Source of the DNA: an uncultured Acidobacterium sp.
GTDB lineage: Bacteria > Acidobacteriota > Terriglobia > Terriglobales > Acidobacteriaceae
Direction: 5' to 3'
Assembly (NCBI GenBank): GCA_964535525.1
Contig: CAZHTJ010000001.1
Location: 197,786 to 261,785 of the forward strand
Length of the DNA stretch: 64,000 nucleotides
Shown here: positions 1 to 56,693 of the stretch, piece after piece
Layout of the letters: each line of letters starts with the position of its first letter
How positions within the stretch are numbered: position 1 is the stretch's first letter
Translations under genes and position numbers: made by a program
The notes under the pieces: model-generated
The model's input: the letters and a program-made list of their open reading frames with translations, nothing else
Told to the model about the DNA's origin: nothing
Databases searched by the model: none

Positions 1-2283
1 TGGGCGCGAGTAGCTGTAACCATAAGCCTCCTCTAGAAATTTTGGACGCACGTCGTTCAGCACGATTCCGAGCATGGGCGTTTGGGTCCGATCAAGCGAC
101 TGTACAAGAGCCGAAAAGAGAGAACGCGTCGTCCGCCCAGATCGCACCACCGCGATAATGCCGCCGACTTTTGTAGCTATCACGGATGCATCCGCGACCG
201 GGAGAATCGGAGGGCTGTCGATCAGAACATAGTCGTACCGAGCTTCAGATGTTCTTAACAGGGTTTCAAACGCAGCCAAGCCGAAGAGTTCGGTTGGCAA
301 CTCCGGCTGTTTTCCGGCTGCCAGCATGTAGAGGGTTGGCAGCGTTGCGTGACGAACGACGTGAGAGACATCGTGCGTAGTTGCCTCTCCGGCGCAATCG
401 CTCAGCCCGGGTGAGAGTTCCGCGCCAAAATGTCTGTGTAACTCCGGGTTACGGAGGTCGGCGTCGACCAACAGGACTCGCGCACCCTGCTGCGCGAAAG
501 CAACGCCAAGGTTGTAGACAATCGCTGTCTTACCTTCGCCCTCGATCGCGCTTGTTACAAGAATGGAGCGCGATTTAGTCGCAGGCATTCCCAGCAGAAT
601 TGCTGTTCGAATGGCGCGGAAGGATTCTGAATAAGGAGACTGAGGCGCAGAGATAAGCTGGCTTCCTCCGTCTCCGGCCCCGAGCAGTTTTCCATTGTGG
701 ATGTTCGGGACATACCCCAGCATCGGCAGGTTGAATACTTCCCTGAGATGACGTGGGCTACGTACGGTTTGGTCCATACTCTCGCGCAGAAACGCCGCGG
801 TGATTCCGGCAAAGAGTCCAAATCCCGTAATCAGAGCCATATACTTAACGTATTCAGGGCTGCTGGGTGATCCGGCCGCACGCGCTTGGTCTACGACGTC
901 GATACGCGCAGCGCGAACTCCAGACGCTAGGCTTGCTGTTTGCAGTTTTGAGAACAAGCTCTCATATAAAGCCCTGTTTGAGTAGGCTTCCTGCGCCAGT
1001 ACCTGGAGCTTGACCGTTTTATCCGCCATCGCATCGGCGGCAGATTGCTGCTCAGTGAACTGTTGCCGAATAGTACCTTCGTTACGCTTGGCATATAGAT
1101 ACGCATTGGCGGCCCGCAGTCTAATGCGTTCTAATTCCGCCTGCATCTGTTGCTTAACGGCATCCATCTGTTGCTGCAACTGAATCATCTTTGAATCATT
1201 TGGTCCATAGGTCACTGCATAACCGGCATACTGGCGTGATAATGCCGCCTCCTGGGCTCGCAAAGATCGAACCAATTCGATGCCGCTGTCGGAAGTCAGT
1301 GTGCCGGTTCCACCACCGATGGCGCTGGCGCCATTCATCGTTCCAAGGCCCAAGACGACCTCTGGATCCTGGGTCTGAACTAAGCGATACACCATTTCCG
1401 TCGAGATTCGGCTCGCTTCCGCCTGCGTAAGTTCCTGATTGAGAGCGAAGAGACGTTCCGTTATGGTGTTGTGCGGAGAAACCGCGACGCTGCTTGTGCC
1501 GTCCCCCGTCGAGGCTCCCGACAGCTCAATCCCTGCGAGCCCGGTTTGGCGCTCATAGTCTGCCAGATTCTGTTCTGAGGTTTCAACCTGTTTCTTCAGA
1601 TCGCCCAACTCCTGCTGTAGCCAGTAAGATGCTTGTGCCGTCAGCCGCTGATGGCGTTCCATCGCATTCTCGATGAAAAGGTCTGTGAGAGCGTTTGCGA
1701 TGTTTGCAGCCAGTACGGGGTCAGGATTTTGATACGTGACGTTGATGAGTCGCGTATCCTCCGGCGATGCCACCTTGAGGCTGCGCTCGAAGAGTTTAAA
1801 CATGCGCTCTCTTGTACGCGGCGCATCTTCGAGAGGCCGGCCTCTTTCTCTGGGATCGTTGACCCGGTCGAAAGGGCGCCTTTGCTGCAGATTCAGCTGC
1901 TTGATTACTTGCATCGCCAGACCTTCGCTCTGCAAAATCCCGATATCGGTCTGAATCTCGCTCTTGAGTTCGTCCGATGTCGGCTGATTGGCGTTCGACG
2001 AAACGCTCGCTCCCTCTATCTGATTCTCCTGTTGCACCTCGATAGTGGCAGTTGCCGAATACTTGGGCGTCATCAAGAAGCACGCAGTAGCCCCCAACGC
2101 GATAATCGCAATCCCCAGAAACCCAACCGTCTTCCAGCGGCGACGAAGAACGCGCAGTAGGCCGGGCAACGTCTCATACTCCGACGCGCTCGGCAAGAAA
2201 ATGACGTCCGAAGCCGGCGTGCTCGGAAGGAGCAGAGGGTTGTGCGGTGGATTCAGGGAGGTATGCAATGAAGAGGAACGCAT
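1..2283 (-). CDS. Polysaccharide chain-length determinant / BY-type tyrosine autokinase (Wzc/GumC-like); 3' end runs off the window
   Basis: Uninterrupted minus-strand frame from ATG at 2283 to the window edge. It is absent from the ORF track because there is no stop in the window. Own translation gives an N-terminal TM/Wzz-like region (TPKYSATATIEVQQ), a P-loop kinase (ILVTSAIEGEGKT, VLLVDADLRNP, VLIDSPP) and a Tyr-rich tail (YGYSYS). Confidence 0.8.
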   Translation of the reverse strand, partial: MRSSSLHTSLNPPHNPLLLPSTPASDVIFLPSASEYETLPGLLRVLRRRWKTVGFLGIAIIALGATACFLMTPKYSATATIEVQQENQIEGASVSSNANQPTSDELKSEIQTDIGILQSEGLAMQVIKQLNLQQRRPFDRVNDPRERGRPLEDAPRTRERMFKLFERSLKVASPEDTRLINVTYQNPDPVLAANIANALTDLFIENAMERHQRLTAQASYWLQQELGDLKKQVETSEQNLADYERQTGLAGIELSGASTGDGTSSVAVSPHNTITERLFALNQELTQAEASRISTEMVYRLVQTQDPEVVLGLGTMNGASAIGGGTGTLTSDSGIELVRSLRAQEAALSRQYAGYAVTYGPNDSKMIQLQQQMDAVKQQMQAELERIRLRAANAYLYAKRNEGTIRQQFTEQQSAADAMADKTVKLQVLAQEAYSNRALYESLFSKLQTASLASGVRAARIDVVDQARAAGSPSSPEYVKYMALITGFGLFAGITAAFLRESMDQTVRSPRHLREVFNLPMLGYVPNIHNGKLLGAGDGGSQLISAPQSPYSESFRAIRTAILLGMPATKSRSILVTSAIEGEGKTAIVYNLGVAFAQQGARVLLVDADLRNPELHRHFGAELSPGLSDCAGEATTHDVSHVVRHATLPTLYMLAAGKQPELPTELFGLAAFETLLRTSEARYDYVLIDSPPILPVADASVIATKVGGIIAVVRSGRTTRSLFSALVQSLDRTQTPMLGIVLNDVRPKFLEEAYGYSYSRP

Positions 2284-2294
2284 ATAGAGATGCC

Positions 2295-3095
2295 TCAGTC
2301 GAATGTCCGAATGCGAAGGAATTGCAAGCTTATGTTCCAGATGAATGTGGGATTGTTAATTAGATATCGTCTCCACAATCGCTTCGGCTCCTGGAAAAGG
2401 CGATGGAGCCACTGTAGCCCGACTGCTTTGATCCAGCGCGGAGCGTCTGCAATCTTGCCGGTGTGAATATCGAACGCTGCGCCGACTCCGATCATGAGAC
2501 GGGTATCGAGCTTCGCCAGATATAGGGCCATGAACTTCTCCTGCTTTGGAGTACTCAGACCGACCCAGATAATGTCAGGCTTCAGGGCTTCGACCTGACG
2601 GATCAGTTCGGCCTCTTCTCCTGGATTAAACGGCCTAAAGGGTGGAGTAAAAGTCCCAACTACTTGGAGCCCTGGTAGGCGCTTCATTAAAACAGCGGCG
2701 AGCTGGTCGGCCACGCCGGGGTTTCCGCCATAAAAAAACTGGGTATAACCTCGGGAGACAGATAACCGGCATAGCTCGAGCATATAGTCGGGGCCGTATA
2801 CACGACGCATACCGCTATGTCCTTGCATCGCGCCAACCCAAACGGTTGGCATTCCGTCCGGGACGGTGACGGTCGCCGTATTCAGAATGTGACGAAAACC
2901 GGGGTCAGACTGAGCCTCCATTACTCCATGAACCCCAGTTACGCATACGTAACCCTTCTTTCCTTGCAGGATATGGTCATCGGCAAGACGCACGGCTTCT
3001 TCCATCCCAACGGCGCTGATATGCACTCCGAGCACATTGCATCGGGGATGCTCGGTTAAATCGGTGTTGGGAAGAGACGACATAAAACTCTCCAA
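2295..3095 (-). CDS. WecB/TagA/CpsF-family glycosyltransferase
   Basis: 266-aa ORF with a family-typical pattern (CNVLGVHISAV..., YVCVTGVHGVMEA, FFYGGNPGVADQ, IIWVGLSTPKQEKF). An alternative start is at 3083. Confidence 0.8.
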   Translation of the reverse strand: MESFMSSLPNTDLTEHPRCNVLGVHISAVGMEEAVRLADDHILQGKKGYVCVTGVHGVMEAQSDPGFRHILNTATVTVPDGMPTVWVGAMQGHSGMRRVYGPDYMLELCRLSVSRGYTQFFYGGNPGVADQLAAVLMKRLPGLQVVGTFTPPFRPFNPGEEAELIRQVEALKPDIIWVGLSTPKQEKFMALYLAKLDTRLMIGVGAAFDIHTGKIADAPRWIKAVGLQWLHRLFQEPKRLWRRYLINNPTFIWNISLQFLRIRTFD

Positions 3096-3145
3096 AGGAA
3101 AAGAGCGATGCAGCGTAACCTAGGCGGGAACCCATTCCGGTCACG

Positions 3146-4243
3146 CTATCGTGCGATCAATTCTGGGACTTTCCGCGATGCCTGCACTTGAGCGTTGATC
3201 CAACCGTATATCTTTTCCAGACCCTCCTGCAATGGCGCAGACGGCGCCCAATCCAGCTTCTCCCGAATCAATCGGTTGTCGGAGTTTCTTCCCCGTACAC
3301 CTAACGGCCCCGGTATATGCCGAATGTGGAGCCGTTTGCCAGCCGCGTCCATTACCATCGCTGCAAGTTGATTAAGGGTGACCATCTCATCCGATCCGAT
3401 ATTCACTGGGCCAGAAAAGTCGGATTCCATCAGGAGTCGCACACCTTCTACACATTCGTCGATATATAGAAACGAGCGCGTCTGACTGCCATCACCCCAG
3501 ATCTCGATCTCGCCATCGTCCTCGACCTCTGAAACTTTGCGACAGATTGCGGCGGGTGCCTTTTCTCGCCCTCCGCGCCAGGTCCCCTGGGGACCGAAGA
3601 TGTTGTGGAAGCGAGCAACGCGAACCTGAACGCCGTGATTGCGCGCAAAGGCGAAGTAGAGGCGCTCGCTGAACAGCTTTTCCCAGCCATACTCGCTGTC
3701 GGGAGCAGCCGGGTAAGCCGATTCTTCACTGCAGATCGGACTCTCGGCAATCTTCTGGTTATATTCTGGATAGATGCAGGCCGAGGATGAGTAGAAGTAT
3801 TTGTAGACGCCGGCCTTTACACCTTCGTGCAGCATGTTCAGATTGATGGTCGCCGAGTTATGCATGACTGCGGCATCGTGTTCTCCCGTGAAGATGTAGC
3901 CGGCGCCTCCCATATCCGCTGCGAGTTGATACACCTGGTCAATCTCCCTGACCACGTCTGCTGTGGTCACAGGGTCGCGAAGGTCACCAATCACGAACTC
4001 GTCCGCGTCGGTTGAGCTGAACTCCGGGTACTTGAGATCCACGCCGCGAACCCACAGTCCTTCACTTTTAAGTCGGGTGACCAGGTGACTTCCGATGAAA
4101 CCGCCCGCTCCTGCTACCAGAACTCGTTTCACGATATCCCCTTTCGGCCCTGTTGAAGTTTCGTAAACACCGGACAAGCCTTTGCTCCTGGCGCTTTCCC
4201 TTGACTCCGTCACACCCTTCGATGGGAATAAATGTTTATCCAC
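3146..4243 (-). CDS. NAD-dependent sugar epimerase/dehydratase (GDP-mannose 3,5-epimerase-like)
   Basis: Rossmann motif VLVAGAGGFIGSHL and an SSSACIYP...K type active-site region. The true start is probably the GTG at 4132, just before KRVLVAG. Confidence 0.8.
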   Translation of the reverse strand: MDKHLFPSKGVTESRESARSKGLSGVYETSTGPKGDIVKRVLVAGAGGFIGSHLVTRLKSEGLWVRGVDLKYPEFSSTDADEFVIGDLRDPVTTADVVREIDQVYQLAADMGGAGYIFTGEHDAAVMHNSATINLNMLHEGVKAGVYKYFYSSSACIYPEYNQKIAESPICSEESAYPAAPDSEYGWEKLFSERLYFAFARNHGVQVRVARFHNIFGPQGTWRGGREKAPAAICRKVSEVEDDGEIEIWGDGSQTRSFLYIDECVEGVRLLMESDFSGPVNIGSDEMVTLNQLAAMVMDAAGKRLHIRHIPGPLGVRGRNSDNRLIREKLDWAPSAPLQEGLEKIYGWINAQVQASRKVPELIAR

Positions 4244-14770: not shown

Positions 14771-14844
14771 TGGCTGCCCCCCAGGGATTCGAACCCCGAT
14801 ATGCTGATCCAGAGTCAGCTGTCCTGCCGTTGAACGAGGGGGCA
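14771..14844 (-). tRNA. tRNA-Gln (anticodon CTG)
   Basis: Hand-folded 74-nt cloverleaf: acceptor TGCCCCC/GGGGGCA (U1:A72, G73, CCA encoded), anticodon stem GCTGA/TCAGC with loop CTCTGGA, T-loop TTCGAAT. Confidence 0.9.
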
Positions 14845-46672: not shown

Positions 46673-46749
46673 AGGCGCGTAGCTCAGTTGGTTAGAGCGC
46701 TACCTTGACACGGTAGAGGTCAGGAGTTCGAGTCTCCTCGTGCCTACCA
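46673..46749 (+). tRNA. tRNA-Val (anticodon GAC)
   Basis: Hand-folded 77-nt cloverleaf: acceptor AGGCGCG/CGTGCCT, D-arm GCTC..GAGC, anticodon stem CTACC/GGTAG with loop TTGACAC, T-arm AGGAG-TTCGAGT-CTCCT, CCA encoded. Confidence 0.9.
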
Positions 46750-46750
46750 T
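46705..46750 (+). repeat. attL core (3' 45 nt of tRNA-Val + 1)
   Basis: ttgacacggtagaggtcaggagttcgagtctcctcgtgcctaccat, identical to 56285-56330. Confidence 0.9.
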
Positions 46751-46779
46751 ATCTTCCTAAAAACAAGCAACTTGGAACG

Positions 46780-47979
46780 TCATGCGGAGATGGCCTGAAG
46801 TTCCAAGGGTGCTGAAGGGTGCTGAGACTCCGCATCCTTGTTGTTTTGGGGCAGGAGCAGTTCGATAATCCTGCCGGTAGCTTCGTGCTTCCGAGCCGAA
46901 ACAGCGTGCGTGTAAATGTCCAGTGTGGTGCGACTGTTCGCGTGCCTTAGCAACTCTTGCGCGACCTTCACATCAACACCCAGGCTACGCAGGTTCGTCG
47001 CCAGTGAGTGACGGAAGGAATGCCAACCGATCACCTTGCCCTTGACTTCAGCTTTCGCCAGAGCGGGGCGGATGATCTTCCGCAAGAGCGTATCCGGGGA
47101 CAGGGGCTTTGCACCCTTGAGCCGATCTGACGGAAACAGAAAATCCGTGTCCGCCTGATAGTGCGAAACCGCGCGCCATTGGAGGAGAGACCCCAACACA
47201 GTGGGATGGAGCGGAACGGGTCTGTGACTCGCTTCGGTTTTGGTGTCGCCGATGCGATTACGGAAACACGACTTCGTGACGGCAATCTCCATCGTCTCGG
47301 AGTTGATGTCGCTCCATCGCAGGCCGATGAACTCAGACCGCCTCAGCCCTGTACTGCCCGCAAGCATCACCATCGCTCTATCCCGCACGGTCAACTGTGC
47401 GAGTAGCGCGGCGAACTCCGCAGGTTCGAGAACGTCTTTTTCACGGACCCGCTTTGCCGAACAGCGCACCGCACGGATGGGGTTGCTCGAAACCCACTCG
47501 TGCCGGATTGCATGTGAGAACAGCGCGGAGAAAACAGCTTTGATCTTTGTCCGCGTTGCCGGTGACTTCGGCAATTTGGAAAGCCACTGCTCTACAGCAA
47601 CGGTATGCACCGCCGATAGCTTCATGCTGCCCCAGGTCGGAGTGACGTACAGCTTGAGGAAATTCTTGTTCACTTCGACCGTAGAGAATGCCTTCCGTTC
47701 GGTGGTCAATTCGTGCTTCGTGTAGTGGGCCAGGAGTTCGCTCACCGTTGCCGGGGAACGAACCTCCGAGTTGATGTTGGCGCGGAGACTGAGCACAGCT
47801 TTCTCAGCGTCACGGCGAAGTGGAAACTCTCTCACCGTGCCGATGCGCTGTTTCCGATAGACCCGCTTTTCTCCAACCTCTTCATAGAAGCGGAGGAACC
47901 AGGTGTCGTCTGTGCTTTTGTTCTTCACGCGGATGAGACTTCCATGCTGAAAACGCGGTGTTCCGATCATTGGAATCAT
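46780..47979 (-). CDS. Tyrosine-type site-specific integrase
   Basis: C-terminal catalytic region ...TGLRRSEFIGLRWSDI...WHSFRHSLATNL...LLRHANSRTTLDIYTH (R..HxxR..Y). Confidence 0.9.
   Translation of the reverse strand: MIPMIGTPRFQHGSLIRVKNKSTDDTWFLRFYEEVGEKRVYRKQRIGTVREFPLRRDAEKAVLSLRANINSEVRSPATVSELLAHYTKHELTTERKAFSTVEVNKNFLKLYVTPTWGSMKLSAVHTVAVEQWLSKLPKSPATRTKIKAVFSALFSHAIRHEWVSSNPIRAVRCSAKRVREKDVLEPAEFAALLAQLTVRDRAMVMLAGSTGLRRSEFIGLRWSDINSETMEIAVTKSCFRNRIGDTKTEASHRPVPLHPTVLGSLLQWRAVSHYQADTDFLFPSDRLKGAKPLSPDTLLRKIIRPALAKAEVKGKVIGWHSFRHSLATNLRSLGVDVKVAQELLRHANSRTTLDIYTHAVSARKHEATGRIIELLLPQNNKDAESQHPSAPLELQAISA
46805..46825 (+). promoter_or_regulatory. Tandem AGGGTGCTGA motifs near attL (candidate integrase arm-type sites)
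   Basis: aagggtgctga agggtgctga lies inside the int 3' end. The same decamer pair occurs in the same orientation at 56182-56204 near attR. Confidence 0.4.
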
Positions 47980-48251
47980 CCTTTGGTCGGAGCATCGGTG
48001 GCTGGAACGAGTGTAGCGGCTGCCCCTCGAATATCAAGGGAATTCTGCCCAGTGCATCGGGCGCGCATCCACTGCTCAAGATCGCTCTCCAGGAACCGCC
48101 AGAGCCGTCGCTTGCCCTCGCCGATGGGATACGCAGGCAGATAGCCCTGGCGCGCCCAGCGGGTCACTGTGCGACTGTGGAGGCCACCCAGATACTCGGC
48201 TGCATCTTCGGGACTGAGGAAACGACGCGTCTGCTTTTCGTTGCTGTTCAT
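47976..48251 (-). CDS. Excisionase-family helix-turn-helix protein
   Basis: FLSPEDAAEYLGGLHSRTVTRWARQGYLPAYPIGEGKRRLWRFLESDLEQWM (MerR/Xis-type HTH). A 4-nt overlap with int. Confidence 0.7.
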   Translation of the reverse strand: MNSNEKQTRRFLSPEDAAEYLGGLHSRTVTRWARQGYLPAYPIGEGKRRLWRFLESDLEQWMRARCTGQNSLDIRGAAATLVPATDAPTKG

Positions 48252-48454
48252 ATCGTCCCCGCGACGTGTCTGCCCTGAGCTATGAACTGCTCAAGGTCGC
48301 TTTGGTGATACCGCACAGGGGCTTTCTTGCCATCCCCCAGTTTGACGTACACGGGGCCGATTCCACGGCAGCGCCATGAGCGCAAGGTGGGCATACTAAC
48401 GCCCAGACGCTTTGCGACCTGAGCCTCGTTCAAAAGTGAGCTTTCGTTGTTCAT
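48248..48454 (-). CDS. Second small HTH DNA-binding protein
   Basis: LLNEAQVAKRLGVSMPTLRSWRCRGIGPVYVKLGDGKKAPVRYHQSDLEQFI. Start taken at MNNESS. Confidence 0.6.
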   Translation of the reverse strand: MNNESSLLNEAQVAKRLGVSMPTLRSWRCRGIGPVYVKLGDGKKAPVRYHQSDLEQFIAQGRHVAGTI

Positions 48455-48576
48455 TTTTCTCCAAGAGTGTTGCGCGTTAGGCGCAAAGAAAGACCCCTGC
48501 CCACCTATCCTTGGACCCAACGTCAAGGAATAGAAGAGCAGGGGTTTTCTACTTAGGCGGTCACGACCGCACTAAC

Positions 48577-49737
48577 TTATGCGTGATTGACAAGGTTGTA
48601 CACGGGCGGAACCCCAGCGCTCAGGGCAAACCCGCCATAGCGCGCTTTTGCCAGGAAGGCATAGCTTCCGTAGTCAGGCAGGAAGCGCTCAGTCAGCCGG
48701 AACAGGTGAATGTCCGACACACTGCGCAGGCAGTAACCGGATTCCCAGTTGCCGAATTGGATACTACCTACCACGCCACTACCCATGTTCGGGTGAGCCA
48801 CAGAAAGCTGAATCGGATAGCCCAGGATGCTGTCGAACTGTTCCGAACCCGCAGACGCGGTGAACAGCGGGCGACCGAGCGAATCGGTCATCGCAGCCAG
48901 CGCCATCTTGGTACTTTGGTTCATGACGAACTTCGCGCCAGGCAGATACGAAGGGTCCAACTGTTCAATCAGGTTCGTCAGGTCGCTCCACACTACCGTG
49001 GTAGCTGCGGACGACGCGGGCGCATTGGTTGCCGACGTGATCACGCTGGTGATGTTGGTACTCCCAGCGACCAGCTTGGCAGCCAGTCCGCGATAGATCC
49101 TCCGAAGCAGAAGGTCTCTAAGTAACGCCTCGATATCGTAATCCGCATCTTCCAGTTCGGCCACGGTCACCAGCGAATAGCCCGAGTCGAATTCATCGAC
49201 GTTCGAGATAGTCGAAGTGATGGGCGGTTCAAGCTCACTGGACGCAGACCCATCGGTGATGTCCGCCGCTACGTTGCCAGTGTCATTCACGAAAGGAGTT
49301 TTCGCAGGCATCCCCGTGTCAGTGTGCCACTGGCGAACGATGTTAGCCACGCCCGCGTAGCTCTTCTGCGCCTGGACCACTTCAGGGAACATATCCTGAT
49401 TGATCACAGCAACGCCAGAGGTACTGCCGGTAGAGATGGCCGCGCGGTTCTCCATTGGAGTTCCGTAGCGTGCCCAGTTCCGCAGAGCTTCGCGGTTCTC
49501 AGTGTTCACACCAGGCTTGGAATTGAACGCTCCGCGAGCATTGGCCGCGCGGGTTTCACGTTCGATTGATTCCATGCCCTGTATGGTCCGCAGCGACTCT
49601 TCCGCGTCAGTCATCATGCGGTTAAACTTGGTCCGAACTTCCGCCGTCATGGGCGTGGTGCCCTTCGGGATAAGTGCCTGCGCGTCCGCGACAAGTTTCG
49701 CTCTCGCCTCGCGCATAGCTTTAATCTGTTCAGTCAT
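48577..49737 (-). CDS. Phage major capsid protein, HK97 family
   Basis: N-terminal delta-domain-like helix (MTEQIKAMREARAKLVADAQAL...) and HK97-fold-typical C-terminal region (...LGYPIQLSVAHPNMG...GNWESGYCLRSV...). Confidence 0.85.
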   Translation of the reverse strand: MTEQIKAMREARAKLVADAQALIPKGTTPMTAEVRTKFNRMMTDAEESLRTIQGMESIERETRAANARGAFNSKPGVNTENREALRNWARYGTPMENRAAISTGSTSGVAVINQDMFPEVVQAQKSYAGVANIVRQWHTDTGMPAKTPFVNDTGNVAADITDGSASSELEPPITSTISNVDEFDSGYSLVTVAELEDADYDIEALLRDLLLRRIYRGLAAKLVAGSTNITSVITSATNAPASSAATTVVWSDLTNLIEQLDPSYLPGAKFVMNQSTKMALAAMTDSLGRPLFTASAGSEQFDSILGYPIQLSVAHPNMGSGVVGSIQFGNWESGYCLRSVSDIHLFRLTERFLPDYGSYAFLAKARYGGFALSAGVPPVYNLVNHA

Positions 49738-49800
49738 TTGGTATTGCCTTTCTGTTTTGCAAAACAAGGGAGCAACTTTCCACTGCCCCCACACTTGGGA

Positions 49801-51093
49801 TTAGGCTTCGATGCCGTCCTGGGAATCGTCTAACTCTTCGTCGAGTTCTTCTTTGTTGGACGCGGCTCCCACTTCGTTCATATTGGCCGGTTCGAGATAG
49901 CGGTCGCCATCGGGGATGCTTGGCAAATCTTCCATCGCGCGGCACTCATTGGCCGATAAGATACCGGCATTCCGCATTTGGGTGTAGTAAGTGGCGCGGT
50001 CTGTGATGCTGGATCTTAGAAGACTCCGGGTATCCGCACGGATGATGTAGGAAGCGGTCGGAGCCAACTTAGCCGTCATTGGCTGCTCAATCCGGGCCAG
50101 GATAGGACCGAGACCGTACTTAAGAAAGTTCGCGTCCTGTTGCTCTGCGCTGGCACGGGGCGCACGGTCATTCAATCCAAGGATCGAAGGAGGCACTCCC
50201 AAACTCCAGCACAACTTTTCGGCAGACAGCTTAGCGGCTTCGACGAGTTGCCCGTCGATTGGCTTTGCAGTGAGTACTTCGACACTCTGCCCCTGATCTA
50301 AGATTGCAGCCTGGTGTGTGTTCCCGCCCGTGAATAGTGCGTTCCACGCATGGCGTAGCTCTGTCTTCTGCTCAGGTTTCATCGTGCCCGGATACGTGAT
50401 CGCAACCGAAGGCACTCCACTGGACGCATAGTAGCGGGAACCATAAATGGTCTGGGCCATGGCTTGGCCAATCTCCTGGCGCAGCATCTTCACAGTGGGT
50501 AGCCCCACGATGCCGTCAAGGGAGAGACCGGCGCAGTGGATCATGTCATCCGCTTTCACCGTCCGCTGTTTCGAGTCGGGAGTGTCGCGCGTGGTGTAGT
50601 AGAGCAAGCCCCCATCATCACGGTGAACGTCAGTGAGATGGGAGGCGCGAATCCACATAGCCAGTGGTTGCTGAGTTACGGGATTGCGCTGGATCTCGGC
50701 AAAGCCGTTGCCCCACAGGAGCATGAGCAAAACCAGAGTCGAGTAGAACGAGATCGGAGTGGCGTCCGGGTTCGGAGCCGTGCCGATCAGTTGCGCAACC
50801 GGATGGTCGCGGATTTCCTGGCGGTGCATCGGGTTCGTTTTATCCTGGCGGTAAAGCCGGAAGGGTAGCTGCGCAGTGGTGTTAGCCAGAACGCGGCAGC
50901 AACCATGGAACGCGGCGCATTCGAGGGAGTTCCCTGGCGACACACGCACGCCCGCTTCGCTATTCCTCTGCCCGTCGATTAGCTGCCACCAGGCAGGGCC
51001 GGAGAGGGGAGTACTTGGACTTTCGAGGATGCCACTACTGCGGAACGCGGCGACGGCGCTCTTAATTCGATTCGTAATCGACATTGTTACCAA
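49801..51093 (-). CDS. Phage portal protein, HK97 family
   Basis: 430 aa with the pattern AAFHGCCRVLANTTAQLPFRLYR...NPVTQQPLAMW...ILGLNDRAPRASAEQQDANFLKYGLGPIL, and an acidic C-terminus. Confidence 0.85.
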   Translation of the reverse strand: MVTMSITNRIKSAVAAFRSSGILESPSTPLSGPAWWQLIDGQRNSEAGVRVSPGNSLECAAFHGCCRVLANTTAQLPFRLYRQDKTNPMHRQEIRDHPVAQLIGTAPNPDATPISFYSTLVLLMLLWGNGFAEIQRNPVTQQPLAMWIRASHLTDVHRDDGGLLYYTTRDTPDSKQRTVKADDMIHCAGLSLDGIVGLPTVKMLRQEIGQAMAQTIYGSRYYASSGVPSVAITYPGTMKPEQKTELRHAWNALFTGGNTHQAAILDQGQSVEVLTAKPIDGQLVEAAKLSAEKLCWSLGVPPSILGLNDRAPRASAEQQDANFLKYGLGPILARIEQPMTAKLAPTASYIIRADTRSLLRSSITDRATYYTQMRNAGILSANECRAMEDLPSIPDGDRYLEPANMNEVGAASNKEELDEELDDSQDGIEA

Positions 51094-51670
51094 TTCCTTT
51101 TCCGTGCGCAGCGATCTGCGCTTCGACTTTCAGATACTCTGCTTCGAGTGCGGTCCATTCCTCGGGGTCACCCTCATCCCAGGGGTTGCGCCCGAGCATT
51201 TTCCATAGCTCGTCACGCTGCGCTAGCAGGTCGCCCTGTTGCCCATGCAATTCCCAGGCACGCGTGTACAGCGCTTCGAGGGTCGATTCACTCTTCGCGG
51301 GCTTCCTCTGCGCAGTCAGACCCATCTGCCTTGTCAGGCGGACGCAGATTAGTTGGTTATCGCGGCTGATCTTGACGTAGGGGTTTGCTACGGACTTCTC
51401 ACCGACCGGAGCGCCGTGACGGTCTCGCATCGTCTCGCGGACGACGAGTCCCTGCCGCTTCAGCATCTTCTCTGCCGCTTGCCACTTGGCGAAGCTCGTG
51501 ATGTACGAGTTCAAAAGGGCAGGATCAACGTCGGGGAGCCGGTCCGTCGCGGCGAGAACCGTGACGATGCGCTCCCATTCCCGCTGGGCGACCGCAGATA
51601 GGCCCTTGGGTACCTTTGGGGCGGAAATCGGCGGTTTTGCCTTGCTTTTCGGTCGTTTTGTTGATACCAT
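51062..51670 (-). CDS. Phage terminase small subunit, P27 family
   Basis: PKGLSAVAQREWERIVTVLAATDRLPDVDPALLNSYITSFAKWQAAEKMLKRQGLVV...NPYVKISRD. It overlaps the portal gene by 32 nt. Confidence 0.75.
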   Translation of the reverse strand: MVSTKRPKSKAKPPISAPKVPKGLSAVAQREWERIVTVLAATDRLPDVDPALLNSYITSFAKWQAAEKMLKRQGLVVRETMRDRHGAPVGEKSVANPYVKISRDNQLICVRLTRQMGLTAQRKPAKSESTLEALYTRAWELHGQQGDLLAQRDELWKMLGRNPWDEGDPEEWTALEAEYLKVEAQIAAHGKGIGNNVDYESN

Positions 51671-51878
51671 GAAAGTATCCCCTCAACCTGTAACTTCTTT
51701 GAAATGAGCAGAACGATGCGTAAACCGTCGAGAATCAACGGTGGGTGGTCGATTACGTTTTGGATTGCGTGAAAATTCACCTGGCCTGTTGGTCCCGGCT
51801 GGTGCTCACCCTCCGAACGTCATGCCCCCTACCATCAGTAGTTAGCTCGACTCGTGTTGATTGCACTGGAGTTAGCAG

Positions 51879-52235
51879 CTACTCTGTGGGATCAATCTCA
51901 TAGGCGAGAAGATCAACCGTGATGTTCCGCTCCTCAGTGTTGATGAATCCCTCCGCCAGCTTGAACACCCGCGTCCCGAACAGGATCAAATAGCCGGGTT
52001 TGAGCACGACGCTTGCTCCGGGATAGCGAATCGTTATGCGGTGCGACAGCTTCATTGACACCTGCGTTGCCTGAAAGACTTCAGACGACGTGAGCGGACG
52101 GATGCACGCCCACAGTGTCGCTACTGTGGTCGGCGTTGCGGTGCCGGGTACGAATGGGTTCGATGGTGCAGCCGGAGCTTGGATCGTGATCCTGTGCCGT
52201 AGCCTGCCCGCTTGGGGTGAGAGAGGGTTCGCCAT
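51879..52235 (-). CDS. Phage head-closure / head-tail adaptor protein (SPP1 gp16-like)
   Basis: LRHRITIQAP...ATLWACIRPLTSSEVFQA...LSHRITIRY pattern. Confidence 0.7.
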   Translation of the reverse strand: MANPLSPQAGRLRHRITIQAPAAPSNPFVPGTATPTTVATLWACIRPLTSSEVFQATQVSMKLSHRITIRYPGASVVLKPGYLILFGTRVFKLAEGFINTEERNITVDLLAYEIDPTE

Positions 52236-52913
52236 CTATCCTCCACCGAAGTAGCCGAACGGCAGCACGCGGTACGGTGTCAGCAAAGCCTCAGCCGCAT
52301 ATGGAAGTTCCACTGCGTTGCCCTGCCCAACCACAAACGACTCACGGTTGTTATAGAGCGCGCCGCACGTCAGCTTGATTGCTGCAATGATCGTTGCGGG
52401 GATGGTGCCCGTGTATCCGGCTGTGAACTGAATCAGCACGCTGTTCATATCAGACAGTGCGACGGGCCAGTTCGCACCGTACACGGGTTTCAGCCGTCCC
52501 GGTTCCGACAGGTTGTCTATCTCATAGGTGCTGGGGTCAAGCGTGATCGACTCGCCGGTACCTTGATCGCTGTAGGTGATGCCGGTGACCGCAATGAGCG
52601 GTGAACGCGGGATGGTGATCGTCTGACTGCGGTTCCACTGGGCCATGCCATCCCAGCCGATACGGTCATGGTCTGCACGAGACGGCGCGGCGCTGATGTG
52701 GTGATAGCCAGGGAAGCGATCCAGTCCGAAGGTCCAAGTCTGTGGAACGAAGCAACGGCCAGTGAAGTCCTCTGCGCGTTCCCGTGCCGCACTTATCAGC
52801 GCCTGGATGAGCGAGTCATCATCGTCAATGTCCACCCGTAGGTGGAGCTTCATGTCCGACAAGCTCACTGGCTCACTGGACGGTGGCGTCGTTTGTTTCA
52901 GCGCGAATGCCAT
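52236..52913 (-). CDS. Phage gp6-like head-tail connector protein (with C-terminal extension)
   Basis: VSLSDMKLHLRVDIDDDDSLIQALISAARERAEDFTGRCFVPQTW matches the N-terminus of the connector family. Confidence 0.7.
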   Translation of the reverse strand: MAFALKQTTPPSSEPVSLSDMKLHLRVDIDDDDSLIQALISAARERAEDFTGRCFVPQTWTFGLDRFPGYHHISAAPSRADHDRIGWDGMAQWNRSQTITIPRSPLIAVTGITYSDQGTGESITLDPSTYEIDNLSEPGRLKPVYGANWPVALSDMNSVLIQFTAGYTGTIPATIIAAIKLTCGALYNNRESFVVGQGNAVELPYAAEALLTPYRVLPFGYFGGG

Positions 52914-52928
52914 AGCTACTCATTTCTG

Positions 52929-52942
52929 TTGCACGTGTGCAA
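52929..52942. promoter_or_regulatory. Operator-like motif TTGCAC-GT-GTGCAA, copy A
   Basis: 16 nt upstream of the connector gene ATG (52913). Related copies at 53503-53519 and 55531-55571. Confidence 0.4.
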
Positions 52943-53502
52943 TTTGGTGGTGATAACTCGCAGCGGCGGGTGTTGCCAACCGGGTGAAAGAGAAGACCCT
53001 GCCCGGAATCATCTTCCGATGCCATGCCCGCGCCACCGCGTCAGCCGTTGGGACGACGGCTGGAACTCAAATGATGATCTTTAGTGGCCGATGCGCTGGA
53101 GTACCACGCGTGCCCGCGCAGTGATGCGGGTGGTTTGCAACTCCCACCTTGCCCCAGCCGATAGCATCGGCCAATCGGCACGTCGCTAGTTAGCACCGCC
53201 GCAAAGCGGTGACGGTACGACGCGCAGACATTCATTGGCCCGTTCCGGCTATCGACCAAGAAGCGGGGACGGGCCAAGTTGCGGTGAAGCCTGGAAGAAT
53301 CACCGCAAGCTCAAAACAAAAGTGGGGCAACCAGTCCCTGTGACTGACTACCCCGAATGCGGCACGTGACGTGATGGCCGTTAATCCATCATGCACGTTG
53401 CTGTGAGGCAGCCGCGAACTTGGAAAAGATGCGGGACGAACACCCATGACAGGTTCGCCCCGCGCAGTGGTTGAGCGACGAGCAAAACTCAATCTTTGTG
53501 TG

Positions 53503-53519
53503 GCACGTGTGCAACTACC
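53503..53519. promoter_or_regulatory. Operator-like motif GCACGTGTGCAACTACC, copy B
   Basis: A 17/17 match to 55531-55547. It sits at the upstream edge of the 600-bp ORF-poor gap. Confidence 0.4.
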
Positions 53520-53742
53520 CTCTGCTGTAGTCTCCCAGCCAGCCAAACCCACTGGCGTGGCGCTGGGCGCGTAGTTCGGTACGCTGCCTGGAGAGCCTGG
53601 CCAGACGGCGGTCAACGCTCTTTAGTTCCTTCCACGCGGTTTCGCGCTCGACACCATCGGTGCAGGAGTGCTCGATGACGAGGTGCTCACGCTGGCGCTG
53701 CAAATCGGGGATCTCTAGCTCGATCTCACTGAGGGATTTCAT
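53515..53742 (-). CDS. Hypothetical small protein (coiled-coil-like)
   Basis: 75 aa, overlaps the upstream ORF by 17 nt. No domain recognised. Confidence 0.4.
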   Translation of the reverse strand: MKSLSEIELEIPDLQRQREHLVIEHSCTDGVERETAWKELKSVDRRLARLSRQRTELRAQRHASGFGWLGDYSRG

Positions 53743-54100
53743 CTCTCTCTTCTTTCAACATTCGGCGCAACGTTAACTCGACTCCCGCGAGATGACAGAT
53801 AAACCAGAAAGTCTGTGGGAAATTGCTTGGCACGTCACCATAGACGTACCCGGCCAGTTCCGACCGGAAACCGCGAAGGATCATATCGGCCAGGCTCTCA
53901 GCGAGCTTGACCGCCTTGCGCTGTACGGCGGATGTCTGAATCTCCGAGGGAGTGAGCAGAGCCATGAGAATGAAAAGCATCGCTGCATCCTCATCTTTGT
54001 TCGGGTCCGGGTTCTGGATTTGCTCCATAGTCAAGTCTGGCGTCTGTGAAGAGATGAGCGCATAGGCGCGTTCGCACCACTCACGATGTTGCTTTGTCAT
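53726..54100 (-). CDS. Hypothetical protein
   Basis: 124 aa. AGGAGG lies 9 nt before the ATG. No domain recognised. Confidence 0.5.
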   Translation of the reverse strand: MTKQHREWCERAYALISSQTPDLTMEQIQNPDPNKDEDAAMLFILMALLTPSEIQTSAVQRKAVKLAESLADMILRGFRSELAGYVYGDVPSNFPQTFWFICHLAGVELTLRRMLKEERDEIPQ

Positions 54101-54120
54101 TTATGCGTTCCTCCTCTCTC

Positions 54121-54180
54121 TTCTATAAGCCGGGACAAAACGGGATTTTTGGAACTCAAAGTGAAATATTCTTCGAGTGT
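54121..54180. repeat. ~55-bp direct repeat, copy 1 (TAAGCCGGGACAAAACGGGnTTTTTGGAAC...GAAA.TATT.TTCG)
   Basis: Aligns with 54365-54425 at roughly 85 percent identity by eye. It lies immediately upstream of the ATG at 54100. Confidence 0.8.
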
Positions 54181-54325
54181 GGTTTCTGAGCAGGGTGTGG
54201 CCTTCAGAATTAATCACTTGGGGTTTGCGCCGCGTCATCCACCATCTTCGCTCGCACTCACTCGCTATCGCTCGTTCGTCCCGCTCGCTGTTTTAGCGGC
54301 AGAGTCTGTTCGATAGCAGCCCCCC

Positions 54326-54550
54326 CTATCCCCCCCAACCGTCAAAATTCTTAATGGCGGTCGTTATAGTAAGCCGGGACAAAACGGGTTTTTTGGAACA
54401 ACTCTGAAAATTATTTTCGCGGCGGGGGTGCGGGGTCTTTTTGGGCAGACCATTTCGGCCCATGCAAGGCTCGCCGGGGTTGGCCTTGCAACGTGGGCAC
54501 GTGACCGATAACACATGCTGATAAGGCCCCCGAAGGTCATCTTGACTCAT
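54326..54550 (-). CDS. Small zinc-ribbon-like phage protein
   Basis: VTCPRCKANPGEPCMGRNGLPKKTPHPRR resembles the CPxC...GxPC...HxxR motif of small actinophage/prophage proteins. Its C-terminal ~25 codons overlap repeat copy 2, so the true end is uncertain. Confidence 0.35.
   Translation of the reverse strand: MSQDDLRGPYQHVLSVTCPRCKANPGEPCMGRNGLPKKTPHPRRENNFQSCSKKPVLSRLTITTAIKNFDGWGG
54365..54425. repeat. ~55-bp direct repeat, copy 2
   Basis: See 54121-54180. The copies are 244 bp apart and flank a (GAGCG)n-rich stretch and C7-TAT-C7 (54320-54336). Confidence 0.8.
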
Positions 54551-54558
54551 TGCGGCTT

Positions 54559-55542
54559 TCACTCTGCGATTGCTCCTTTCATCGCGGCTTCCGCTTTCTG
54601 CCCCAATGTTCGGACGTACCGGGGACTGCATCCCAGCGCCGTCGCTATTGCCTTGTCATCACTTCCTGCCCAGCGCATCTCGATTACGACTCGCTGATGT
54701 TCGGGTAGCTGTGTGATCAGCTTGCGCAGGAGGCGTCGGTCATGGTCGGGACGGGATGGCGCACCGTCTGCCGCGTCACGGGTCGGAATCACTTCATCTT
54801 CATCCACTACAGTCTCGCTCCCATCCTCGCTCTCGGTTGGAGGTTTGGTTTCATAATCGAAGTGGACATGCTCCCGCCATTCCTCCGCGTCGCGTCCTGC
54901 TCTTACAATGATGAGCGTCTGAGTGAGTCTGTAGTTAGGACTGGCTTTCAACTTATGGAAGAGCTTCAGCGTGGATAGCTGCACCACGTCGGGAATGTCG
55001 TCACCCAGCCGTGGCCACTTTGCCCGGAGGTGAAAGGTGGCGTACTCCGATATCACCTGGCAGAGTTGATCGTCGCTAAGTGTGCCCTGCAACCATCCCT
55101 GGTGGGTTGTGGTGATGGTTTTGGGCGCATGGTCTTTGCCCCAGTAGTGTCGGTCATCCGCTCCGGTCTGTGCGTCCGCCGTTTCCTGGCTGCCCCTCTC
55201 ACCCTCTTTCGCATGCAGCGTGAATGGCTGATCTGGGATTCGCTCCACAACGGTCACCGGCAACGCGCAGCGGTACCGTAGGGCCGCCTGCTCCTCTTCC
55301 GTGCCCCAGACGCCCCGCCACTGGTCCGACCGTGTTTCGTCGAACTCACGCAGCGTGTGGGCATGGGGCAGTTGCTTGCTCAAGCTGAGTGCATGAATGG
55401 GACCGGGCGCGGGTGGATTCCTCCACTTCGGCCCCTTCTCTGCAACAAACTCACTTGGAAACTTTGGATATTGCCCCAGACCTTTGCCAGGACGTGCGAG
55501 TGCCCACTGAGTCAAAACCGATCCTCGTGCGCACGTGTGCAA
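54559..55542 (-). CDS. Sigma-70 region 2/4-like (ECF-type) protein with ~180-aa unknown N-terminal extension
   Basis: C-terminus LPEHQRVVIEMRWAGSDDKAIATALGCSPRYVRTLGQKAEAAM (region 4 HTH). DDIPDVVQLSTLKLFHKL...IIVRAGRDAEEWRE is region-2-like. The likely start is the TTG at 55515 (GAGGA 7 nt upstream) rather than the TTG at 55542. Confidence 0.6.
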   Translation of the reverse strand: MHTCARGSVLTQWALARPGKGLGQYPKFPSEFVAEKGPKWRNPPAPGPIHALSLSKQLPHAHTLREFDETRSDQWRGVWGTEEEQAALRYRCALPVTVVERIPDQPFTLHAKEGERGSQETADAQTGADDRHYWGKDHAPKTITTTHQGWLQGTLSDDQLCQVISEYATFHLRAKWPRLGDDIPDVVQLSTLKLFHKLKASPNYRLTQTLIIVRAGRDAEEWREHVHFDYETKPPTESEDGSETVVDEDEVIPTRDAADGAPSRPDHDRRLLRKLITQLPEHQRVVIEMRWAGSDDKAIATALGCSPRYVRTLGQKAEAAMKGAIAE

Positions 55543-55571
55543 CTACCGAAGGAGGCAGTCTGCACACGTGC
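55531..55571. promoter_or_regulatory. Operator-like motif pair: GCACGTGTGCAACTACC + inverted TGCACACGTGC
   Basis: Two copies in inverted orientation, 13 nt apart, directly upstream of or overlapping the start region of the sigma-like gene. Confidence 0.45.
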
Positions 55572-55686
55572 ATTTTCCTTTGGGATGGTTCGCTCTTGAG
55601 GCACCCTCGGGAGAGGGTCAGAGCCGGGAGCTTGTCCGCTAAATTCTGCGTCCAGTGGTCTCCTGATGATGTGGTGTGTAATTCAA

Positions 55687-55763
55687 GACTAAATGTTTTG
55701 GGGGATGGGTGTCAAGGAAAATCGGGGAGTTTAAATTAGATCACGGGTTGGAAGATGCGTCAA
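55687..55763 (-). promoter_or_regulatory. Two tandem sigma-70-like promoters facing the sigma-like gene
   Basis: Minus strand: TTGACG-17-TCTAAT (55763-55735) and TTGACA-17-TTAGTC (55715-55687). Confidence 0.3.
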
Positions 55764-55800
55764 GCAGCGCGGTGCGGGGTGTTGCGGGGCGTGCGGAGTG

Positions 55801-56058
55801 CTACTTCTGATCCTCTGCGGCCCATTGCCGTTGGTAATCGCGCCAGCTTTGGTGGCCCTCGTACTGTGGAACCAATTCCTGCATGGCGCGCTCACACATC
55901 TTGTAGTTGATGTGGTTCGAGGGCCAGTCCAAGTCAAAGAGGAGGCCGTGCCCCTTCACCCATACGATTCGCTCTTCCGGAGACATCACGGATAGTGGGA
56001 CGCCGTTCAGACTCTCGGCAAGGGCGGTGAGTTTCTTCATTTTTTCGCTCGGGTTCAC
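55801..56058 (-). CDS. Hypothetical protein (first ORF inside attR)
   Basis: 85-aa ORF (alternative ATG at 56040). No domain recognised. Confidence 0.4.
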   Translation of the reverse strand: MNPSEKMKKLTALAESLNGVPLSVMSPEERIVWVKGHGLLFDLDWPSNHINYKMCERAMQELVPQYEGHQSWRDYQRQWAAEDQK

Positions 56059-56127
56059 AGGCAGATGCTAGCAGGCGGGAAGCCGGGTGGGACGTTGGAA
56101 ATGGAGAGCAGGCGAGAATTGGTACCC

Positions 56128-56204
56128 TTGACCTCTACCCTATTTCTACCCAGGAACGGTAGAGGTCAGGCACCGAATTTCGAGGGTGCTGACGAGGGTG
56201 CTGA
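56128..56204. promoter_or_regulatory. attR-proximal integrase-site cluster: inverted copies of a core fragment + tandem GAGGGTGCTGA
   Basis: ttgacctctacc (56128-56139) and ggtagaggtcagg (56158-56170) repeat part of the att core in inverted orientation. gagggtgctga occurs x2 at 56182-56204. Confidence 0.4.
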
Positions 56205-56284
56205 GGGTGGTTTAGGAGTGCTCTAGGGTGCTTTTCGGTGCCACCGGTGCTCCTAGAATCAATGGGTTACAACCCGATTTCGCT

Positions 56285-56330
56285 TTGACACGGTAGAGGT
56301 CAGGAGTTCGAGTCTCCTCGTGCCTACCAT
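56285..56330 (+). repeat. attR core (partial tRNA-Val 3' half; not a functional tRNA)
   Basis: Identical 46 bp to 46705-46750. The upstream sequence does not form the 5' half of a tRNA. Confidence 0.9.
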
Positions 56331-56693
56331 CCTTTCAGCAACTTACAGCGGAATCACGGCGTTGGATGCTCCATAGCTGGAGCAGTTCTTGCTACCAAAA
56401 CTCTACCAAGTCACATTCAGATGCAACGCATCTCTTTGATTCCGCGCCAGAGATAGCCGCAAAGACACCTATGACCTCTACCGCGCTCGAAAGGGGGTCA
56501 CGGCCTCCGATGCCTCATTCATCGCAGTCAGCAGGACGGAAATGGCTGGATGCCGGCTTGCAGCGACAAACTGACCGATTCCTGGAATCAGGCAGGCCAT
56601 TTCCGGGTTCCGCGTGCTGCAGAGGTGGCGCAGCAAGGACTACGAAAGGGGCCTCGGCGCAAGATCACAGGCAGAAACGCAGCAGAGAGCCCA

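Follow-up and report, generated by a model that had tools for sequence, protein, structure and literature searches.

What might a chromosomal island do that carries its own phage capsid and portal genes, together with a small terminase subunit (TerS), and that has no gene for the large terminase subunit (TerL) or for the prohead protease? The question is raised by a 9.6-kb element inserted at a tRNA-Val gene of an uncultured Acidobacterium sp. (contig CAZHTJ010000001.1). The element lies within a stretch of 64,000 nucleotides, here called the window, and a preliminary description of that stretch had proposed it as a capsid-forming phage satellite. In our view it is probably a satellite that supplies shell and portal itself and outsources TerL, the protease, the tail and lysis to a helper phage. 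By sequence comparison, it is a member of a small, deep-branching and previously undescribed family in Acidobacteriaceae hosts.

The preliminary description had placed the element between two copies of a 46-bp repeat, with the integrase gene adjoining an intact tRNA. Both statements hold: the repeat is perfect (46705-46750 = 56285-56330), its spacing defines an island unit of 9,580 bp, and it corresponds to tRNA-Val(GAC) from the anticodon loop to the 3' end. The features that define the boundaries are as follows.

46673..46749, plus strand: tRNA-Val(GAC), the integration target, intact after insertion (ARAGORN; Rfam RF00005, 70 bits)
46705..46750: attL core, 46 nt, equal to the 3' half of the tRNA; perfect direct repeat
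46780..47979, minus strand: tyrosine integrase (Int), 399 aa (PF00589, 1.7e-28; phrog_1, 7e-69)
56285..56330: attR core, 46 nt; perfect direct repeat, with the empty site seen in contig L135

An empty attB is present in contig L135 (JGI 3300014199), which joins window positions 56383..56331 to the 46-nt core, the rest of the tRNA and the cardiolipin-synthase side at 100% identity. A second empty site was found in contig L133, where the right flank is 77% identical. Taken together, the two contigs show that occupied and empty sites differ at precisely the junctions that had been predicted. Integration is site-specific, targeting the 3' half of tRNA-Val, and chromosomes that are identical in other respects lack the element. 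Its flanks are ordinary host genes, with a CDP-alcohol phosphatidyltransferase and a DUF2461 protein on one side and an outer-membrane efflux protein and an ABC-2 transporter on the other. The host had been thought to look acidobacterial, and the HU protein of the window is indeed exactly HTV15420.1, annotated as "[Acidobacteriaceae bacterium]".

Within these boundaries, all open reading frames (ORFs) supported by profile hidden Markov models (HMMs) from Pfam, PHROGs and NCBIfam lie on the minus strand, and the matches confirm the gene order given earlier. Those encoding parts of a phage head are listed here.

48577..49737, minus strand: HK97-fold major capsid protein (MCP), 386-387 aa, with a delta-like N-terminus (PF05065, 7.6e-28; TIGR01554, 7e-49)
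49801..51093, minus strand: HK97-type portal, 427-430 aa (PF04860, 3e-81; phrog_12, 8e-92)
51062..51670, minus strand: P27-family TerS, 202 aa, with a C-terminal extension of ~80 aa (PF05119, 1e-13; TIGR01558, 46.3 bits at a cut-off of 45.6; phrog_83)
51879..52235, minus strand: head-closure protein of the gp7/gp16-SPP1 type, 118 aa (PF05521, 8e-15; TIGR01563)
52236..52913, minus strand: gp6-like head-tail adaptor, 225 aa (PF05135; TIGR02215, 4e-29; phrog_442)

The genes for TerS and portal overlap by 32 nt (taking the longest portal ORF) at the place that TerL occupies in phages, and 63 nt separate the portal and MCP genes; both figures had been reported correctly. The TIGR01554 match spans MCP residues 7-370 and hence includes the delta-like N-terminus, which the capsid protein was already said to have kept. 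The N-terminal ~100 aa are conserved across the family and in phage L009, and the delta-like region is homologous to that of an MCP encoded beside an S78 protease.

No TerL, prohead protease, tail, lysis or replication gene was found in the element with Pfam, PHROGs and NCBIfam. When 3,239 ORFs from 113 canonical phage loci were used as tblastn queries against the window and the relatives described below, there was no match for TerL, protease or tail proteins; the only queries to match were HNH, TerS, portal, MCP, adaptor, head-closure and Int proteins. Six-frame translations were also searched, at maximum sensitivity with filters off, with custom HMMs built for TerL (from 86 sequences) and for the S78 protease (from 43); nothing came up below E = 4, and no pseudogene traces of either gene appeared in any frame. 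What remains unassigned are ORFs of just 75-274 aa, which are too small for TerL, a primase or a helicase. The three profile libraries gave no match for a primase-replicase either, the largest otherwise unassigned ORF being one of 274 aa with sigma-like features. These absences had all been proposed from inspection of the ORFs, and the library searches, tblastn and six-frame custom HMMs agree on them; profile searches of all ORFs and of a long ORF-less gap likewise revealed no TerL, protease, primase or tail gene.

An obvious explanation for such a gene set is a decaying prophage that lost TerL, protease, tail, lysis and replication genes by chance deletions. In favor of it are the phage origin of the head genes and the position at a tRNA gene, which many prophages share. 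However, the att repeats are perfect, an empty site exists, and the missing enzymes have left no pseudogene traces in any frame. Further evidence comes from at least six independent related elements besides the window copy, with lengths of 8.4-9.6 kb. Searches of 5.8 billion proteins with the portal and MCP gave a handful of close relatives, after which identity dropped to 34% or less. The family members are listed with their portal identities to the window element.

L001: portal 88% identical; same tRNA-Val site
L002: portal 61%; tRNA-Gln(CTG), 63-nt repeats; 9.43 kb
L007: portal 58%
L003: portal 49%; tRNA-Val; ~8.4 kb
L008: portal 49%; Acidobacteriaceae metagenome-assembled genome (MAG; DATASQ01); non-tRNA site; ~8.95 kb
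L128 and L231: further family members

Three different insertion sites are used within the family, and the hosts that were identified (those of the window element and L008) are Acidobacteriaceae MAGs. In all members, the interval from TerS to portal is -111 to +27 nt and that from portal to MCP is 7-156 nt. In the loci with portals of 34% identity or less (100+), the corresponding intervals, where the flanking gene was detected and with two loci of odd gene order (L045 and L050) excepted, are 1.5-4 kb and at least 0.55 kb. In the phage loci L009 and L232, the two intervals are filled by TerL and the S78 protease, and adaptor, head-closure and tail genes follow the MCP gene. Neighbor-joining trees of 54 sequences each for portal and MCP place the TerL-less elements in an exclusive clade with a long stem. 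Compared with L001, at dS values of 0.7-0.9, dN/dS is 0.117 for the MCP and 0.125 for the portal, and it is 0.09 for the integrase. At the level of substitution patterns, the first two ratios show that MCP and portal are under strong purifying selection; both, like TerS, are selectively maintained.

The shared junctions, the three insertion sites, the exclusive clade and the dN/dS of ~0.12 together argue that the element is not a deletion remnant. Chance decay would need the same two precise "deletions" in six or more members, with portals down to 38% identity; these relatives come from different samples, at 38-90% identity, and are not artefacts of a single sequence. A full prophage with the same gene order at this site in relatives was also looked for, since it would have pointed to a remnant. 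In related sequences, the tRNA-Val site holds the sister element L001 or is empty (L135, L133), with no full prophage. The decaying-prophage explanation is contradicted by these data and effectively excluded. The layout had been argued not to derive by simple deletion from a canonical head module because the connector genes precede terS. The conclusion stands, given that the junctions are common to six relatives; the connector genes themselves are not part of the family core, as they occur in the window element and L231 only.

The family core comprises a sigma-like regulator, an orphan of 118-166 aa, an orphan of 75 aa, TerS, portal, MCP, an HTH_17 (helix-turn-helix) protein and Int. What precedes TerS is variable: three members (L001, L003 and L008) have an HNH gene directly upstream of it, and L002, L007 and L128 have unknown genes there. 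HNH proteins are the usual partners of TerL in HK97-like cos packaging. L003 and L008 form a mosaic in which the block from the sigma-like gene to TerS, including HNH, is 86-99% identical, whereas the portals share 38% and the MCPs 55% identity, and the integrases and sites differ; this indicates that the family recombines as modules.

Several side observations concern the family and its neighbors. The tRNA-Gln(CTG) gene of the window (14771-14844) contains a single exact copy of the 44-nt att core of L002, at 14772-14815, and thus offers an unoccupied attB for a second family member. Copies of the same element from other samples (L129, L130, L132 and L122) have an integrase allele of 396 aa versus the 399 aa of the window copy, with identical MCP and TerS; these alleles reflect either variation at the population level or recombination at the Int end. 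Peat metagenomes with the element are JGI 3300014169, 3300014199, 3300014200, 3300014654, 3300014658, 3300041809 and 3300042090 and ENA ERZ272xxxxx. L002 carries opposite-strand cargo near attL, a Sel1-repeat protein at 696-1589(-), and two 62-nt promoter-like direct repeats (TTGACC...TACTAT) flank an ORF-less stretch of 522 nt that separates its sigma-like gene from the next one (2590-3173). Among the distant loci, L050 (Ga0335081_10007135) has an integrase and the order portal, adaptor and head closure, with the MCP gene ~1.2 kb further on, while in L045 (Ga0335072_10001901) the MCP gene lies ahead of the portal gene; these might be other satellite-like arrangements.

How does the family relate to satellites that are already known? 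The core of phage-inducible chromosomal islands of the capsid-forming kind (cf-PICIs) has 11 parts: int, regulator, primase-replicase, HNH, TerS, TerL, portal, protease, capsid, adaptor and connector. These islands, with EcCIEDL933 as the prototype, "encode all the proteins" for making capsids and packaging DNA, among them TerL, the head-maturation protease and usually HNH. The element resembles them as an integrase-bounded island with its own HK97-type MCP, portal and TerS and, in this copy, adaptor and connector, and without tail, holin or other lysis genes; its heads would be fitted with tails of the helper. In contrast to cf-PICIs, it lacks TerL, protease and primase-replicase, and its regulator is ECF (extracytoplasmic function)-sigma-like versus the AlpA type of cf-PICIs. 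With integrase, TerS, portal, MCP, adaptor and connector present, the HTH_17 proteins counted as the regulator, and primase-replicase, TerL, protease and HNH absent, the element has 7/11 components, and HNH-type relatives have 6/11. The cf-PICI model of SatelliteFinder needs at least 9/11, and the element therefore falls outside that class. Hence, the earlier view of a more reduced island of the cf-PICI type has to be given up: by definition this is no cf-PICI, and it belongs to an independent, Acidobacteriaceae-associated family with its own portal and MCP clade, set apart from cf-PICIs by component description. Models of classical PICIs forbid portal, adaptor and connector, all of which the element has, and it lacks their pri-rep gene. 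It would work like a capsid-forming satellite and is a member of neither cf-PICIs nor PICIs.

Other systems share single aspects. Like pac-type SaPIs, the element has a satellite TerS without TerL, an arrangement by which SaPIs redirect the helper's large terminase to satellite DNA; SaPIs, however, use the helper's MCP and portal, remodelled by CpmA/B, and encode Rep/Pri, whereas the element has its own MCP and portal and lacks a replication module. The Streptomyces satellites MulchRoom and MiniFlayer carry encapsidation genes and lack key replication genes, which gives them a similar "satellite virus" logic, but they have TerL and a scaffolding protein, MiniFlayer does not integrate, and sizes and hosts differ. 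The minimalist PICMI satellites of Vibrio likewise have a very small gene set and rely heavily on the helper; unlike the element, they lack capsid genes and are packaged in helper capsids as concatemers. HK97-like siphophages (L009, L232 and L138) have homologous P27 TerS, portal, MCP, adaptor and head-closure proteins; they differ from the element in having TerL between TerS and portal and S78 between portal and MCP, with neck and then tail genes after the MCP. The element is no complete HK97-like prophage: TerL, the protease and the modules for tail, lysis and replication are missing. It does fit the general definition of a phage satellite, a mobile element without a complete set of virion, lysis and packaging genes.

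SaPIbov5, with its Ccm protein, likewise has a satellite MCP homologue that lacks a cognate protease. On a Ccm-like model of the element, the satellite MCP (and portal) would co-assemble with the helper capsid, for instance at the vertices, forcing small chimeric capsids, and the protease would come in via the helper MCP. Such co-assembly would explain an element without its own protease and scaffold, and the cf-PICI preprint cites satellite-encoded homologues of the MCP by which helper capsids are redirected. On the other hand, the capsids on which Ccm acts are built by the helper, and SaPIbov5 lacks genes for portal, adaptor and head closure, whereas the element encodes a portal itself and, in this copy, also the adaptor and head closure that complete an independent-head set. 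The MCP is of full length and includes a delta-like scaffold region, and its identity to the MCPs of the candidate helper lineage is only 25-28%, which is low for co-assembly. We regard this explanation as improbable, though worth keeping in mind.

The neck genes provide a lead to the helper. The head-closure protein is 82% and the adaptor 70% identical to those of the IMG/VR contig L138, in which the order is MCP, an 83-aa gene, adaptor, head closure and a gp10-like gene. The L138 MCP is only 28% identical to that of the satellite, and the combination of similar neck genes with a dissimilar MCP is a pointer to the helper lineage. The adaptor is also 57% identical to that of the complete siphophage L232 and 47% identical to that of L009, a Bryobacteraceae prophage; among GenBank phages, identity is at most 39% for the adaptor and 33% for the portal. 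We read the neck genes as recently captured from the helper lineage, on the strength of these identities, so that satellite heads may fit helper tails.

TerL and protease could alternatively be supplied by another resident element or a defective prophage, making the island one part of a split, multipartite phage-like system. Mini-elements with other subsets of the head module do exist in similar samples. One of them is a 9.8-kb contig (L127, Logan ERR11523670) that encodes an HTH_17 protein, a 174-aa protein, Peptidase_S78, an MCP (33% identical to that of the window element), a second HTH_17 protein and Int, and has no portal or TerS gene; it suggests that other islands with partial head modules exist in similar communities. 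Yet no partner was found in the 64-kb window or beside any family member, the members occupy three unrelated sites with ordinary host flanks, and the neck genes match a complete siphophage lineage. A partner-dependent system is thus, in our judgment, very unlikely.

The remaining genes of the element are regulators and orphans.

47976..48251, minus strand: HTH_17 excisionase/AlpA-like DNA-binding protein, 91 aa (PF12728, 6e-15; TIGR01764 "excise", 1.5e-9; phrog_66)
48248..48526, minus strand: second HTH_17 protein, 92-aa ORF (PF12728, 1.5e-9); gene callers start at 48454, giving 68 aa
53515..53742, minus strand: coiled-coil orphan, 75 aa, with homologues in L002, L003, L007, L008 and L231
53726..54100, minus strand: all-helical orphan, 124 aa, with a homologue in L007
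54326..54562, minus strand: phage-type zinc-finger DNA-binding protein, 78 aa (PF24623, 8e-10)
54559..55383, minus strand: divergent ECF-sigma-like regulator, 274 aa, region 2/region 4-like at residues 127-269 (PF08281, 7e-7)
55801..56058, minus strand: orphan of 85 aa adjoining attR, without matches

The two HTH_17 proteins have weak MerR matches and none to the AlpA model. In the sigma-like protein, region 4 matches PF08281 with 29.2 bits (cut-off 25.7), and TIGR02937 matches at 2e-6 with 27.4 bits, under its cut-off of 42.9; comparison with PDB sequences gave weak sigma matches only, and the homologue in L002 has a faint region 2 match. AlphaFold2 (AF2) models of this protein and of the 124-aa orphan were made from single sequences. 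The former is confident in the C-terminal HTH only, and the latter (pLDDT 62.6) has no PDB fold match at E <0.8; the 124-aa orphan has just four homologue clusters among 1.84 billion representatives. The 75-aa orphan has no family in Pfam, PHROGs or NCBIfam, and the 85-aa orphan has no match in these libraries or in PADLOC. At the position of the zinc-finger gene, L128 has a gene with a weak CHC2 zinc-ribbon match. A 30-nt direct repeat (54126-54155 / 54370-54399; 97% identical, 244 nt apart) has one copy between the zinc-finger and 124-aa genes and one within the 3' end of the zinc-finger gene.

Two noncoding blocks, a pair of palindromic sites and a set of repeats near attR complete the element.

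51671..51878, minus strand: conserved noncoding block upstream of terS, alignable in the window element, L231, L128, L001 and L002
52914..53514, minus strand: ORF-less, hairpin-rich noncoding block of 601 nt, with a strong terminator-like hairpin at 53354-53324
55529..55573, minus strand: two palindromic sites of the TTGCACACGTGC type, lying upstream of the sigma-like gene
56131..56240: attR-proximal repeats, with an inverted copy of a core segment, GGTAGAGGTCA, at 56131-56170 and ~4 copies of AGGGTGCT at 56184-56240

The ~200 nt upstream of terS are kept in five members though the upstream gene differs. The cos site of HK97-like phages sits upstream of terS, and we propose this block as a candidate cos/pac site and/or late promoter. 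Near attR, ~130 nt are 90% conserved with positions 1-134 of L003, whose Int is 84% identical. The repeats in this region are candidate arm sites for Int/Xis, and their conservation in L003 is as expected for such sites.

The longer block is the 600-bp gap of the preliminary description, which measures 601 nt. On both strands, its predicted folding is far stronger than that of shuffled sequences (z = -4.95 and -5.75), and TTGCACACGTGC(A/C)A palindromes lie at both ends (53514-53501 and 52942-52929). About 500 nt of it (52914-53420; L231 1795-2293) are 98-100% identical in L231, with three differences in the 402 nt beside the adaptor gene versus dS values of 0.58 for the adaptor and 1.29 for the head closure in the same comparison. 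To judge from these differences, the ~500-nt block is under either extreme constraint or the product of very recent exchange; it could be a noncoding RNA, a DNA site or a recently exchanged cassette. Only ~45 nt of the gap, a CAGCCGT...ACGGCTG hairpin at ~53082-53035, recur in L001, upstream of HNH. An Rfam search of the island (E up to 1) and of the whole window found two tRNAs only. The gap was also considered as a degraded HNH gene and this was rejected, as phage HNH queries do not match the window in tblastn. ORFs of 127 aa and 78 aa in the gap and an 89-aa ORF over the 5' end of terS (51511-51780) had no profile matches and were treated as spurious.

In L002, L003, L008 and the window element, the near-palindrome TTGCAC-NN-GTGCAA is found both upstream of the gene for the sigma-like protein and at the 3' end of that for the 75-aa orphan; the window element has it also 17 nt ahead of the adaptor ATG. 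Among 233 loci, the perfect 14-mer palindrome was found in family loci only. The pair upstream of the sigma-like gene is a candidate operator or promoter element. A scan for sigma-70 promoters was uninformative (one site versus 3.2 expected).

The strong purifying selection on head genes without a full virion set would also fit an island that acts in defence, in which portal, MCP and TerS would poison an HK97-like invader at the stage of assembly or packaging. Anti-phage activity is common among satellites, and defences aimed at assembly have been described. Nevertheless, PADLOC identified no defence system in the element, which has no match to a known defence family. Poisoning would have no need for a matching TerS, a candidate packaging site, a helper-type neck or a size confined to 8.4-9.6 kb. 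Interference and satellite transfer are not mutually exclusive; as the explanation of the element, we hold interference to be very unlikely.

The reading that we prefer, a satellite with its own shell and portal, suggests the following course of events. Induction of, or infection by, a helper siphophage would prompt excision of the element by Int and the HTH_17 proteins, and the ECF-sigma-like regulator, acting at or alongside the TTGCAC-NN-GTGCAA sites, would turn on the packaging and head genes. The satellite portal would nucleate procapsids of satellite MCP, probably small and suited to a genome of 8.4-9.6 kb, and the delta domain would be removed by the helper's protease (or a host protease). 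The satellite TerS may bind a site in the block upstream of terS and recruit the helper TerL to package satellite DNA; in some members, HNH may join TerS in marking their own DNA. The element's own adaptor and head closure, if recently gained from the helper lineage, would cap the head in such a way that tails of the helper can be attached, and the helper would lyse the cell. Replication is probably also dependent on the helper or the host.

Several points weigh against this course of events. No helper phage was found, and none lies within the 64-kb window (tblastn with phage ORFs); the best candidate lineage is represented by just one 3.9-kb contig. Neither a family member nor a longer helper contig nor a copy of the noncoding block turned up when IMG/VR viral contigs were scanned with the MCP profile, the head closure, the L138 MCP and a conserved noncoding 30-mer, and a metagenome scan with the portal profile found canonical phages only, at 34% identity or less. 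Among the 5.8 billion proteins, IMG/VR and GenBank phages, no phage homologue exceeds 34% identity to the satellite portal and MCP, which makes the compatibility of these two with a foreign TerL and protease an assumption; cf-PICIs carry both enzymes themselves, while the element would rely on foreign ones. The lack of a recognisable replication module leaves amplification after excision unexplained. Helper dependence, excision on induction and packaged or circular forms are steps that we infer, and the roles given to the sigma-like protein, the palindromes and both noncoding blocks, including the candidate cos/pac site, are read from position only. Still, every check that could be made here on the satellite proposal of the preliminary description came out in its favor. 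For the fuller picture of an "enzyme-free" capsid-forming family, with its own HK97 shell, portal and TerS, helper-derived TerL and protease, helper-matched neck genes or HNH as accessories and a hairpin-rich noncoding element of ~500 nt that hardly varies, we see about an even chance.

Known satellites either steal whole capsids (P4, SaPIs, PLEs and PICMIs) or make complete, self-packaging heads (cf-PICIs and the Mulch/Flayer satellites). No description of satellites in Acidobacteriota, none of which had been known to the preliminary description, was found in the literature, nor was a paper on satellites with MCP, portal and TerS without TerL. If our reading is true, Acidobacteriota, a phylum that is abundant in soil and peat and for which hardly any phage genetics exists, would gain its first described satellite family, and this family would represent a level of autonomy between PICIs and cf-PICIs. 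Tools that need 9/11 cf-PICI markers or forbid portal genes would miss such elements, and helper-matched neck genes would offer a purely computational route to pair satellites with helper lineages in metagenomes. The family also raises the mechanistic question of how a foreign TerL and protease may act on a portal and an MCP that have diverged so far. If a lineage has retained just shell, portal and TerS across deep divergence, capsid autonomy could be gained or lost gene by gene.

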